From Eledone cirrhosa (taxonomy: Eukaryota), in NCBI GenBank assembly GCA_964016885.1, contig OZ024754.1:1860001-1924000 (forward strand): a stretch of 64,000 nt of DNA, written 5' to 3'. Shown piece after piece: positions 324 through 32,150 of the stretch. The position numbers were made by a program, and so were the translations under genes. Numbering within the stretch: position 1 is the stretch's first letter; each line of letters begins with the position of its first letter. Below the pieces are notes generated by a model. The model did not search any database and was not told where the DNA came from. It worked only from the letters and a program-made list of their open reading frames with translations.

Positions 324-465
324 AACAAAGGGATTGTGGTAAGGAACCAGATGGACCATAACGCACCAGAGTACTCAATACTTAGGGTAATAGAGTGGGA
401 AATAGGAAAAAGTATGACCCCGTCGAAACGGCTTGAGCTGTGCCGTCGGGCCATACTCATTCCTA
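324..465 (-). mobile_element. (AT)n-embedded repeat family X, copy 1, with inverted hammerhead 3' half
   Basis: Homologous to 27323-27400, 31743-31951 and 31986-32150. GAAA-CGGCT-TGAGCTG-TGCCG-TC at 425-447. Imperfect fold-back 403-420/448-465. Flanked by (AT)n on both sides. Confidence 0.75.
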
Positions 466-1201
466 TATATATATATATATATATATATATATATATATAT
501 AGTGAGGGAGATGGTATAAATCCGACCGCGACGCCAATACTTTTTGGGTTGTAATCAGCAAACCTTTTCAAGTATGAAAACAGAACGCAAAAGGCCACAG
601 CACTATGCTGCGATGCTTGTTGTCCAAATATCTTTGCAAAGAAGCACATTTAATAAGGGCAATACTTTGGAAAGATTGGGAATTTAATATTTCGTTTGGT
701 GTTCTTACACTATTGGCCACGACTATATTTTGAACAGATCAGGCAATCATACAGATGTTTCAATGTAGTTCTCTACATATATATTGTATGTATCGTGTTG
801 AGGTGGTAGTTACAACTTTTACTGAATGCAAATTCGCAGATTACATATCATTAGTATGTTTTCAATTAATTATTTACATTAATTTTCTAATTACAATGTA
901 ATTTCCTTGAAATGTATTATATTTAAATTGTAATCATGGGCAACACACAGGTATATATTAAGACAGTTCTCCAGAAACATTCACACATAGCAAAGCTTAG
1001 ATTTCTGTCTGATTAAGATAGATGAATATGTAAAGAACCATCCAGTTGTAAAGTGAAGATTAATCAAGTATACGTTGTCGAGATTAACATAATCTCTCAG
1101 TTCTATGAATATTTGTATCAGTAAGACGAATTTAGATATATTATAATGTACAATTCAAAAGATATTAGTGCAACATTTCTCCCTCCTTTTCTATGACGTA
1201 G

Positions 1202-1520
1202 ACGTCAGCGGGCAATATTGAAATGTTTGAGCCAACACATAATTGTGAGTGTAGTCGCTGGAACTGTGGCCAGTAACACCAATATCTCACGCAAGTCCTA
1301 CACCCGTAAAGAGAGAAATGAGATAGAATATGACGAGGTAATAGATAGTATATGTCTGGAAATCGACAACCGAAAAAGCATTTCCGCAGCCAATGAACAG
1401 CGACACTCGCTACAAATAGCCACCCGACCCCACGAGGCTCCTTCTCCAGACGGGCATCTGACGTTCCGATCTTACGGAGGTGCTCATCAGTACGGAATCC
1501 GAGTACGCTTGAGTGTATGA
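1202..1520 (+). CDS. Possible exon of an unidentified host gene
   Basis: Polypyrimidine tract plus AG at 1200-1201, then a non-repetitive, GC-richer frame open for about 105 codons to TGA. Donor-like GTGAGT (1245) and GTAATA (1338) also present. No recognisable domain. Confidence 0.25.
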
Positions 1521-3104
1521 CAACGACCGGTTCGAATGCACTCGTCATTGAGGCATTACTCCAACCAGCATAGATTATAAATATTCTATTTCTCTCAGTT
1601 TAGTAATCTAACATAACATGCAATTAATATGAGATAAAATATAGGGGAATAGCAATGAAGAAGTAGGAAAACGAAAAGAAAGAATCCGAGAATTAATACA
1701 TCGACTTAAATCATCACTATCGTCAAATAAATTTGTTCTTTTATATAAATACTCATGTTGTTGTCTTTCTCGTTTCGGAGGCTGTTTTACTCTTGGCTCC
1801 ACTAGAAAATATTTTCAATTTTAATTACCATTTCCAACGTCTAATAATGAGTTGAGACGTTTAATGCATATACATACATATATACATACACATATACATA
1901 GACACATACACACACACGCGCGCACACACACACACACAGACACATATATATACAACTATATATATATATATATATATATATATATTCATGTATAATTGTG
2001 TGTATACAAATATGTATATAAACATATGAATATATATTTATATCTTTATGCAAGAATGTATGCCGATTTGTATATATATATACATATATATATATATATA
2101 TATATATATATATGCATATAAATATGTATATATATATATATATATATATATATGCATATAAATATATATATATATATATATGCATATAAATATGTATATA
2201 TATATATATATGCATATAAATATGTATTTATATATTTATATATAAAATGCATGTGTGTGTGTGCGTGCGTGTGTTGGAATCCCTTGATTAATTAAATTTC
2301 CAGCCATTGTTAGATAATTATAAAATCATTCACTACAAAAGCCACATGAACAATTCCTTTTATTGTCTTCTCCATGGAGCAGTACAAAGAATGGCGCCAA
2401 ATTATTGATTGTATGATTCTACCATTCAATTGTGCCTGTTAATCTTTAATCCACTTTTGAATTTATTAAATTTTGCAATTTTTTCCCTATGTGTCTCCCT
2501 AAATATGGAAAGAAGTGTAATATAATTATGTGTATATATATATATATATATATATATATATATATATATATATATATATATATATATGCGTATGAATGTA
2601 TTAATGTATATATATATATATATATATATATATATATATAATTATATATGTGTGTGTGTGTGTGTGTGTGTGTGTGTGTGTGTGTGTGTGTGTGTGTGTT
2701 GTGTGTGTATGAATATATATATGTATATATAATCTTGGAAATTATGCATAAATATTCGTGGTTATATTTGTATCTATTCAGTCGTATATCATCTCTCTCT
2801 CCCCTCGCGCTCTCTCTCCCCCTCTAAGACTCAGTCTCTCTCTCATTCTTTCTCTTCTACAGACTAAATCAATTTCTTCCGCTCTTTTAACATGTACTTT
2901 ACTGTGATTTCTCCTGCTTTCCGTTTTATATTAATTTCTAACACTATTAATCTATTCCACACACACACTCTCTCTCTCTCTCTCTCTGTCTTTATCGGTT
3001 TCAATTTCTCTCTCTATATATGTATGTGTATATATATATATATTTGTGTACATATATATGCATATATATATATGTGTACATATATATGCATATATATATA
3101 TATA

Positions 3105-3240
3105 TGTAGAAGTTATATTTAATTTGTTGGGATACAACAAGCAAATATTTTTATAACTGATATAAAGCACTCAACATTTTTTTTGTATAATGAAATAAAT
3201 ATGGTTTTATAAATATAGTTTCCATTTGTTAATATATTGT
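3105..3240. mobile_element. Rearranged partial copy of the 6399-6710 element (family Z)
   Basis: 3184-3240 matches 6565-6621 directly; 3105-3180 is the reverse complement of about 6635-6710; flanked by (AT)n. Confidence 0.8.
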
Positions 3241-28950: not shown

Positions 28951-31742
28951 TTATGTAAATATATATATATATAAATATGTATATATAAGCTATATAAATT
29001 GTATACATATTAGATAATACATCGAAGAATAATTCGACAAGAATAAATCCCTTTTCTGTACATAACAGGCTTCATTATGTGAGCATGAACAAATTTATTA
29101 ATTATATTTTCTAATCGTCATCATCATCATCATCGTCTTTTTTCTTCACATTTTCATCTCATCTTAACCATCAACGTCATCATCATCATCATCATCATCA
29201 TCGTCATCGTTATCGCCATTATTAATACAATTAGCTCCATTGTATTTAAATTTAATTATAAAATTTTTCATTCCTTAAATTACTGTATATATATTTAAAT
29301 ATTTGCGTCGCGCGCGTCTGTATGTACACAGACACACATACATATATATACACATACGTATATATATATATATATACAGGTGTGTATATATAATTATATA
29401 TATATATGAATGATATGTATATATTTATATATATATATATATATACATATATATATATATATATATATATATATACATATATATATATATATATATATAT
29501 ACATAGATATATATATATATACGTGTGTATATATGTATGTATATATAAGTATATATGCACCAATAAATATATATGCATTTATATATATATATATATATAT
29601 ACATATAAACATACATATATATAAATATATATATATATACATATATATATAAACATACATATATATAGAGATATGTATGTATATATATTTATATATACAT
29701 ACACACTCACATATATATATATATATATATATATGCATGCATATAACAAAATGAGACATGCACAGGCATACACACTCGCAGTCAGTCACACACATACACA
29801 CACACAGTCACACACATACACACTCAGTCAGTAACACACACACACTCTCACACACGATTGTTCTCCTCACACCCAAATGTACTTATTCAATCATTCACTC
29901 GTTAACGTTTTGTCTTCCTCCTCTACTCTCTCTCTCTCTCTTTCAGGCATTCTCTCTCTCTGTCCTTCGTTTTCACCCACTCTCCTCCTCCCTCTAAGTC
30001 TCTCTCTATATACATATCCCACTCTCTTTCCCTCTAAGTCTCTCTCGGTTTTCCATATACACCTTTCTCTCTCTCTCTCTCTCTCTCTCTCTCTCTCTCT
30101 CTCTATGTGTGTGTGTGTGTATATATATATATATATGCATATATACATATATATATATATGCATATATACATATATATAAACACATACACACAGACACAT
30201 ATATAAACACACACACACACATATAAACACACACACACACACATATATATCTCCATACATACACACGTATATATATATATATATATATATATATATATAA
30301 TATACATATTATTTATATCACACACACATAGGAAGGAGAGGGAGAGAGATTTTTATTAAACTGCATAGAAAGTCATTTATCCTTTTAATTAGCAAAGATC
30401 TGATGTCTCTAATGTGACTCTGCCATTCCCCTCCGTCCCATGAATAATGTAACACCAATCTGCTGGATTCTTTCTTAAAGCTACATCGCCCCCGTCTTTT
30501 ATGTAGGATACACGATATAATTAATACCAACTCATTAGGATCCCATTTCTTTCAGTCCTTCTCCCTCCCCCTCACATACACTCCCCTTCCGCACATACAA
30601 ACTCTCTCTTCGTCACACACATACTCACCCTTCCTCATTCACATACTTCCCCTTCGTCACACACACACACACTCTCCTTTCTTTCCTTTCACACATACCC
30701 CCCTCCTTCTTCTTCACACACATACTCCCCCTTCCTTTCATGTTCTCACTAATTTGCTGACTCTCCTTTTTAGATTCTGTCTTTCTCTCATCAACTCTCT
30801 CCTGCACTTTCCTTCTCTCTCTTTCTCTCTCTTGCACTTTCCCTCACTCTTTCTTTCTCTCATTATCTGTCCCTCCTTTCTTTCGCACCTTAGCCGTTTC
30901 CCACTCTTTCCCTCTCCTTTTTCTAGCTGTTTCTACCACCTAATGTTTCTCCCTAAGTATTATTTCAACACTAACACCCCCTGTGCCATCCATCCTTACC
31001 TCCATCCCTTCGTGTTTATCTGTCACTCTAAGTATCATTCTCTACCCCTCTCTCTATCTACCTCCCTCTCTCTACCATTTTCTCTACCCCTCTCTCTAAT
31101 TCCGTCTGTCTGTCTCTCAGTGTTATGAAATATGGAAGAACTGGGAGATTAAAGTTTTAAATGTGTGAATCCCAAACGCAGAAAAACACTATAACCACAG
31201 TCGCTGGCTATAATTATTAGCTTAGAAATTCGAATGAACGACCTTCGTGTCAACATAACGGCCGCTATGTAGAATCGAACACCGCATCTGTCGAATACTG
31301 GACACCATTTCTGTCTTAATTAAAATGTTTTATTTATCAGCTTACGGCTAATGTCGGAAGTGAATATATATTATAAATTATCGAAGTGCCGGAGGATTAG
31401 AAATTTGAAAGTGTGCGAATAGTAAACGGAGAAAATAAATCCAAAAAGAGCTGGTGGATGTAGATAATTGTTCAAGAATTGGGGTAGATTAAATGAAGAG
31501 ATGGTCAAGTTGGTCAAGCTGTTTAGAATAGCAACTTAATTTCAACGGAACTGGTGACCAGTTGACGTTCAGATTAATGGTTGCTGAGTTCACAATATTC
31601 GGATTCGGATGATACGGAGTTCCATTCTGTGTAGCGACAGTTGGCGTTCAAACTGAAATAAAGTATTTTGTGCGAGAAAAAAGGCACCCGTGTCCACACA
31701 CACACACACGTATATATATATATATATATATATATATATATA

Positions 31743-31951
31743 TAGGAACCAGTAAGACCCCGACAGCTGAGCTCAAGCCGTTTCGACGGCTAATTCTGGA
31801 CGGCTAATTCTCGTCCAGAATTAGCCGTCGAAACGGCTTGAGCTCAGCTGTCGGGGGTTTTACTGGTTCCTATTACCCACTCTACTACCTCAAGTATTGA
31901 GTACTTTGGTGCGTTATGGTCCACCTGGTTCCTTACCACATTTCCTTCGTT
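31743..31951 (+). mobile_element. Family X copy 3: 60-bp fold-back, hammerhead 3' half, conserved 3' end
   Basis: Inverted repeat 31743-31802/31812-31872; stem II 31799-31811/31817-31829; GAAA 31830-33; stem III CGGCT/AGCTG with TGAGCTC loop; GTC at 31850-52. Confidence 0.85.
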
Positions 31952-31985
31952 ATATATATATATATATATATATATATATATATAT

Positions 31986-32150
31986 AACAAAGAGGGTGTG
32001 GTAAGTTACCAGGTGGGCCATAACACACCAGATTACTCAATACTTAAAGTAGTAGAGTGGGTAATAGGAAAAGCGTCACAACCCCGACGGCTGAGCTCCG
32101 GCCGTTTGGACAGCTACGTCCGGAGCTCAGCCGTCGGGGTCCTGACTATT
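31986..32150 (-). mobile_element. Family X copy 4 with perfect 21-bp fold-back
   Basis: Inverted repeat 32081-32101/32120-32140; minus strand reads CAAA-CGGCC-GGAGCTC-AGCCG-TC-GGGGT; tail-to-tail with copy 3 across (AT)n. Confidence 0.8.

Follow-up and report, generated by a model that had tools for sequence, protein, structure and literature searches.

A short, abundant repeat in Eledone cirrhosa, likely truncated Penelope-like ends, was probably formed by priming from both strands of its (TA)n target

How does a short repeat come to end always at the same base of a (TA)n microsatellite while carrying, at its other end, an inverted and truncated copy of itself? The question is raised by a repeat, here called family X, that has four copies (A to D) in a 64,000-nucleotide stretch of the Eledone cirrhosa genome (assembly GCA_964016885.1, contig OZ024754.1, positions 1,860,001 to 1,924,000 of the forward strand), which we refer to as the window. 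An earlier note, made from the letters of the window, had proposed that a Penelope-like or retrozyme RNA is copied from one fixed 3' end and that the reverse transcriptase stalls and folds back at a hammerhead ribozyme. Our analysis describes an abundant repeat, likely consisting of truncated ends of a Penelope-like element (PLE), that was probably made by both nicked target strands priming reverse transcription.

All four copies lie at the coordinates and on the strands given in the note (Table 1), in a window with 32% G+C in which tandem repeats account for 25,022 of the 64,000 bases. Each copy enters pure (AT)n (23–35 bases) at the identical base, and the starts differ on the 5' side, giving a fixed 3' end with variable 5' truncation in four of four copies. 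Their last 78 bases align without gaps, with 3–14 differences per 78 positions across the six pairs, and a profile of the copies searched against the window returned 7 matches at E ≤ 1, all within the known four, with no fifth copy. The proposed association with (AT)n holds as well: four of four ends lie in pure (AT)n (three independent ends, because C and D share one run), against 0.013 per position by chance, as measured by the 735 of 57,129 non-repeat window positions that have (TA)5 or more within 2 bases downstream. On the 5' side, A and C adjoin (TA)n, B adjoins (TA)n with one C between, and D is flanked by (GA)n and then (TA)n.

Instead of the single fixed end described in the note, two were found. 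In the coordinates of copy C, which are used for the anatomy of all copies, the GAAA of a hammerhead-like motif starts at 31830, the C of its GUC is at 31852, and the two ends are at 31872 (site 1, ..TTCCTA) and 31951 (site 2, ..GTT), 20 and 99 bases 3' of GUC, respectively. Direct arms stop at ..GTT/(AT)n and span 31812–31951 in C, 31814–31951 in D, 31852–31951 in A, and 31874–31951 in B; that of A begins at the C of GUC or at most 2 bases later. Inverted arms stop at ..TTCCTA/(TA)n and span 31812–31872 in C, 31825–31872 in A, and 31838–31868 in D, with an outer end common to them (31872 in C and A, 31868 in D). Such an inverted, 5'-truncated arm stands head to head at the 5' end of three of the four copies, while copy B, starting at 31874, is reduced to the 78-base piece that separates the fixed ends. 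The tail lies between these ends and is limited to one arm. At the junctions the arms overlap by 3 bases in A and 5 in D, and in C a 9-base antisense insert, likely a templated insertion, is entered via a 4-base overlap.

Table 1 Features of family X in the window (positions of the whole stretch).
Feature	Position	Strand	Description
Copy A direct arm	324..422	-	Predicted cleavage site (GUC/GGGG) through tail to fixed end
Copy A inverted arm	420..465	+	GAAA, stem III, GUC, to site 1 in (TA)n; 3-base junction overlap
Copy B, tail only	27323..27400	+	Starts ≤2 bases from site 1, stops at site 2
Copy C inverted arm, 60 bases	31743..31802	-	Outer end is site 1
Copy C junction insert	31803..31811	-	Antisense-arm repeat: 13-base match, 4-base overlap
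Copy C direct arm, 140 bases	31812..31951	+	Longest sense stretch of the family in the window
Hammerhead-like 3' half	31830..31852	+	GAAA, 6-pair stem III, palindromic GAGCTC loop, GUC
Tail, 79 bases	31873..31951	+	Between site 1 (31872) and site 2 (31951)
(TA)n run between C and D, tails facing	31952..31985	.	Common to both copies
Copy D direct arm	31986..32124	-	CAAA variant, divergent subfamily
Copy D inverted arm, 30 bases	32120..32150	+	5-base junction overlap with direct arm

Copies C and D, which belong to different subfamilies, flank their 34-base (TA)n tail to tail (31743–32150; hairpin of about 300 bases), which suggests that this microsatellite received insertions more than once. 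The (TA)n of copy A is immediately adjoined by a 163-base fold-back (132–294), the arms of which contain (AG)n/(CT)n.

Beyond the window, sequencing records were aligned to 31812–31951 at 80% likeness. Matches comprised 13,398 contigs in run X1, 386 contigs in X5, and 21,611 reads in X21, three runs under the organism label of the window, and 33 contigs in X4, from another organism; these are counts of records rather than of copies, and X1 possibly derives from the sample that yielded the window. Runs with small matching shares (17 of the 20 runs with matches were under half) were set aside as evidence, except X4 and X5. Depth in X5, a run with no recorded library type, was given no reading as expression. 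Family X is a real, abundant repeat, and both of its fixed ends recur in the three runs of the window's organism label. Among the rows listed, the sequence of the loose ends behind 31856 was ..TTCCTA(TA)n in X21 (3,487 reads, agreement 0.83), X1 (158 contigs), and X5 (16 contigs), and behind 31940 it was ..TTGTT(AT)n (1,342 reads, 74 contigs, and 11 contigs, respectively). The X21 reads, which come from restriction-site-associated DNA (RAD) sequencing, include duplicates, so that the two end types cannot be compared as numbers of loci. Sequence of the family extends 5' beyond 31813 in 124 contigs of X1, 9 of X5, 897 reads of X21, and 1 contig of X4. In X21, read ends accumulate at 31819 (6,121), a pile that was rejected as a biological end and read as a restriction cut, given its AATT site and the RAD library. 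DNA pattern scans of prokaryotic and viral collections, four of them with 0 matches, revealed no further copies; the 25 and 2 matches from two of these scans were attributed to chance, as they had no similarity beyond the pattern. Active PLE families have been described in Octopus vulgaris (PMC13282606), and family X may already be annotated in a repeat library of that species.

The four copies are likely severely 5'-truncated ends (pseudo-long terminal repeat (pLTR) plus tail) of a Penelope-like retrotransposon, an origin that the fixed 3' end, the (TA)n association, and the published anatomy of PLEs support. The traits of PLE ends seen here are a pair of fixed ends, flanking (TA)n, arms placed head to head, a tail confined to one arm, and junction overlaps of 3–5 bases. 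According to one study, PLE insertions lack part of their 5' side and frequently carry there a truncated copy in inverted orientation, a tail of 30–40 bases stands at one end, and Naiad, Hydra, and Neptune target (TA)n (PMC8557442). A second study described head-to-head arms, palindromic junctions, and a tail on one arm, with the pLTR and tail carrying the first 12–22 codons of the open reading frame (ORF) and the tail overlapping the ORF start, and proposed self-priming (PMC3846280). Family X shares with the ends of Penelope/Poseidon, Neptune, Hydra, and Naiad their fixed 3' ends, heavy 5' truncation, head-to-head inverted arm, one-arm tail, microhomology at the junction, and (TA)n flanks; it differs in the length of its tail (79 versus 30–40 bases), and neither an ORF nor a direct pLTR pair was seen in the window, which holds stubs only; among the contig pieces listed, even the longest do not reach across the stretch. 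In four of four copies, an ATG at 31916 is followed by 12 open codons up to the end, as would be expected if the tail holds an ORF start. Selenocysteine read-through of a TGA located 5 codons before this ATG in all four copies was considered and received no support. By exact text on the sense strand, two family motifs had no match in the supplement of PMC8557442 (five cephalopod Naiads and Hydra-1_Obim).

The biochemistry of one PLE offers a closer comparison. The protein of Anolis carolinensis Poseidon (PAc) cuts and extends both strands of AT-rich DNA in vitro and initiates at two positions on the RNA, between which the tail sequence lies (PMC11167929). PAc resembles the arrangement proposed for family X in two start sites of reverse transcription that delimit the tail, in both strands being cut and extended, and in a hammerhead, putative in family X, a short way 5' of the start sites. 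Unlike those of family X, which are placed just downstream of GUC, the PAc sites lie 111–118 bases into the ORF, and the PAc hammerhead is complete and was shown to cleave with the protein, whereas the family X motif is a putative one. Family X is very likely a further member of an already known class of PLE ends and would not surprise a specialist.

Most of the inner ends surround the hammerhead-like motif, whose 3' half the note had assigned to three copies. The order GAAA, stem III, GUC, GGG is indeed present in both arms of C and, with CAAA, in D, but in A it is confined to the inverted arm; GAAA itself stands in three of the four arms that span its position, the fourth being the CAAA of D. 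The GAAA/stem III/GUC half motif is unlikely to have arisen by chance: with either strand counted, it turned up in 3,000 shuffles at a frequency of 0.3% (5 pairs) or 2.0% (4 pairs), although the motif had been chosen after inspection. The majority base of family members at 31849 restores a G-C pair in stem III. Type I hammerheads occur in PLE ends, mostly as single motifs (PMC4209133). They share with family X the GAAA, an A-U pair, a palindromic loop III, a UH triplet, and the C before GAAA, and their frequent occurrence singly or in opposite-strand pairs 100–700 bases apart is a further likeness; they differ in their metazoan stem III, which is minimal or small against 5–6 pairs here, and in having CUGANGA and the 5' strand of stem I, neither of which was seen in family X. 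Judged by its letters, the motif is likely the 3' half of a type I hammerhead carried by PLE ends. The only candidate hints that this putative ribozyme cleaves are the direct arm of A and one joint row (31854), which start within 2 bases of the GUC site; any part it may have in stopping complementary DNA (cDNA) synthesis is hypothetical.

That no copy keeps CUGANGA, as the note had stated, was borne out: CTGANGA with at most one mismatch is absent from both strands of A, B, and C, and its one match in D lies 3' of the cleavage site, in an unusable position. The expectation that longer copies would carry CCCC-CTGANGA upstream failed within about 48 bases of GAAA. The 30-letter upstream consensus, with an agreement of 0.44–0.5 in three runs and a single contig in X4, ends in TTTA before G31813 in all four runs. 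One X4 contig shows by eye an interrupted partner strand of stem II that lacks the closing G, and no 5' strand of stem I was seen. Rfam gave 0 matches at gathering score in the window and 78 weak ones in 31700–32200, none of them to a hammerhead family. Since the predicted CCCC-CTGANGA did not appear in these upstream letters, the note's dead hammerhead is still a reading of a putative 3' half. A type II or type-SGC hammerhead with a downstream CUGANGA was rejected, since GAAA has the closing of stem III on its 3' side and is followed by no intact CUGANGA, and so was a non-circular permutation (PMC10085705), the order of parts of which does not fit.

A second PLE-like family in the window has a compact CTGATGA..CCGAAAC hammerhead core, with copies at 13939 (+), 58661 (-), 38923 (-), and 43030–43099 (+), of which those at 58573–58680 and 43030–43099 have a common fixed 3' end that leads into (CA)n or (TA)n. 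CTGATGA and GAAA are kept together at 13939, 58661, and 38923, so intact motifs survive in this genome.

How, then, could two fixed ends and an inverted arm arise together? We propose that the GIY-YIG endonuclease of a PLE would nick both strands of (TA)n, and that one strand would prime at site 2, where the tail ends, and the second strand at site 1, where it starts. Neither cDNA would get far, most stops falling in the 40 structured bases that surround the GAAA/stem III motif, and microhomology would join the 3' ends of the two, in copy C with a templated insert. In copy B, either a cDNA begun at site 2 would have halted at site 1, or the hairpin would have been lost afterwards. The evidence that separates this course from the copying back of a single cDNA comes foremost from copy A, in which the tail-less arm spans 31825–31872 and the tailed arm starts at 31852; with the inverted arm reaching 27 bases further 5', neither arm can be a copy of the other. 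The joints listed in the alignments have a similar form, in rows that are biased as described below: 8 of the 10 are opposite-strand joints, in all 8 of these one arm ends at 31812–31822 and the other aligns only from 31854–31910, and in 5 of the 8 the second arm begins 3' of site 1. Only joint rows with a 44-letter arm suggest a long arm without a tail, and the listed joints show that such junctions exist, not their frequency. Within copies, the arms show 10 differences in all, each of them in 31853–31868 (46 of the 111 columns where arms overlap), where family members also vary most; these differences lend weak support to two templates, and local mutability beside the microsatellite would account for them as well. 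Taken together, the asymmetry of copy A, the listed joints, and the variable arm differences favor two-strand priming over fold-back.

The note's placing of breakpoints in or next to the ribozyme agrees with six of the seven inner ends (31812–31854), a clustering that arises partly by construction because the inverted arm starts only 20 bases 3' of GUC. The twin priming of LINE-1 elements is similar in that a second strand primes a second cDNA inside the RNA, with microhomology joining the resulting 5' inversion; family X differs in that its second start would be a single fixed site and in the frequent overlap of the arms, by 20–60 bases. Judged by title or the opening of the abstract, we found no paper that applies twin priming to the inverted ends of PLEs, in a search outside of which most subscription journals lie, and the formation of these ends and of one-sided tails is called open in PMC8557442 and PMC3846280. 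With thousands of very short copies and two sharp start sites, family X offers a test bed for the PLE insertion mechanism, and subfamily markers inside the arm overlap could allow a long-read assembly to separate two-strand priming from fold-back.

A number of observations weigh against two-strand priming at a PLE end as a whole. The (TA)n may have grown after insertion and, with no empty site observed, may be either target or by-product, and the tail is twice the published length. Three protein searches gave no match for the family's open frames (that of the ORF start being weak), and no linked reverse transcriptase or GIY-YIG sequence was found: both are absent from the 120 window frames searched with Pfam, 3 of which match, to Helitron domains only. 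In X4, the single loose end at 31856 continues into the tail and both loose ends at 31940 do not end in (AT)n. Stem III is paired in 22 of 25 cells with no compensatory change, a rival hairpin that buries GAAA is the more stable in copy C (-8.0 versus -5.5 kcal/mol), and CUGANGA was not found in the copies or in the 30-letter upstream loose ends of the four runs. The joint rows are biased in that the reference ends at 31812 and alignments clip in the variable stretch 31857–31866, and the letters between arms are not displayed in them; perfect hairpins, moreover, are probably under-sequenced. Finally, C and D fit fold-back equally well.

Fold-back, the note's own model, is the strongest competitor, although we consider it clearly less probable than two-strand priming. 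It keeps the PLE origin and has one cDNA, primed at site 2, stall, self-anneal through a few bases, and copy back to site 1 before joining (TA)n, which comes close to the self-priming proposed in PMC3846280, where palindromic junctions are described as common in PLEs. The inverted arms of C and D suit it, lying wholly within the span of their direct arms with overlaps of 4–5 bases. For copy A it requires an extra deletion, a later loss of the hairpin center. Long palindromes often lose their centers. The 8 listed opposite-strand joints, for all their bias, are like A and run the opposite way, and the arms of one copy differ where family members differ. The claim of fold-back thus fits C and D and does not extend to A without that deletion.

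It is unlikely, in our estimate, that family X is instead a short non-coding retroelement, akin to a short interspersed element (SINE) or a retrozyme, with a master of about 170 bases that has no complete hammerhead and borrows the enzyme of a PLE or a long interspersed element, the GAAA/stem/GUC being a relic or a binding hairpin. None of the seven arms in the window passes 31812, and upstream letters of the X4 contig, similar to the X1 consensus, pair by eye with the strand before GAAA without a preceding CUGANGA; animal retrozymes, moreover, have been described as non-autonomous PLE derivatives (bioRxiv 10.64898/2026.07.22.740005). Copies do, however, continue 5' of 31813 (124 X1 contigs and 897 X21 reads), and the mechanism of insertion would equal that of two-strand priming. 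Retrozymes are head-to-tail units with complete hammerheads (bioRxiv 10.64898/2026.07.22.740005; PMC7229834). Non-LTR retrozymes resemble family X in being short, non-coding, and likely PLE-related, with a hammerhead-like motif; they form head-to-tail tandems with a complete hammerhead per unit, whereas family X is dispersed, inverted, and incomplete. The window has no head-to-tail monomers, which tells against the retrozyme option of the note, and no head-to-tail joint appears among those listed, three rows of which give no kind.

More doubtful still is an elaboration in which a PLE enzyme dimer would prime on two templates and two strands at the tail ends and a split hammerhead would be joined by splicing: the TTTAG 5' of 31814 would be a splice acceptor in loop II, and the spliced RNA alone would have CUGANGA next to the GAAA half and so be able to cut itself. 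The splicing idea derives only from this TTTAG and from Drosophila virilis, in which an intron end overlaps the hammerhead motif (PMC4209133). Least probable is a Tc1/mariner-type miniature inverted-repeat element with TA target duplication, formed by the hairpin (TA-GGAA..TTCC-TA) beside a separate 78-base neighboring repeat. In its favor, TA bounds the C hairpin on both sides and B resembles an empty site. Against it, no two copies have the same hairpin center, the direct arm leads in register to one and the same tail in 3 of 3 cases, and no copy contains an inverted partner of its own tail end. In the tail, moreover, C and D show 13 differences in 78 positions, compared with 2 in 61 between the two arms of C, so that C and D are not the terminal repeats of a single element.

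Outside the window, the 3' ends of published Naiad consensus sequences (supplement of PMC8557442) were inspected by eye for hammerhead pieces. Naiad_Obim, Naiad_Ovul, Naiad_Esco, the entry before Naiad_Dcar, and one further entry have three core pieces that run from cleavage strand through GAAA to CUGANGA, stems I and III in which complementarity is kept by different sequences, an extra linking helix, and an ambiguous stem II; another entry fits this pattern weakly, and the core pieces were not seen in the letters of Adux, Omin, Skow-1, and the entry before Smim. As far as sequence goes, these ends are possibly non-circularly permuted hammerheads in animal retrotransposons. The authors of PMC8557442 describe Naiads as devoid of canonical hammerheads, PMC10085705 places type-SGC ribozymes in no genome of a known organism, and our literature searches found no paper on permuted hammerheads in Naiads.

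Other repeats of the window include inverted arms of about 165 bases, 81% alike and flanked by (TAA)n/(TTA)n (10706–11199), possibly another inverted PLE-type insertion or a miniature transposon, and inverted 74-base arms, 93% alike (3110–3183 and 6633–6706), around a 3-kb AT-rich tandem array. A SINE-like family of about 190 bases, in which ARAGORN found no tRNA, is represented by at least 10 pieces (7949–8494, 9934–10057, 13715–14448, 18300–18400, 33308–33360, and 61266–61670), and its two-copy block at 7956–8494 is repeated inversely at 13718–14239. A broken Helitron (51913–54616, +) has its Helitron_like_N, PIF1, and Pif1_2B domains in separate frames.

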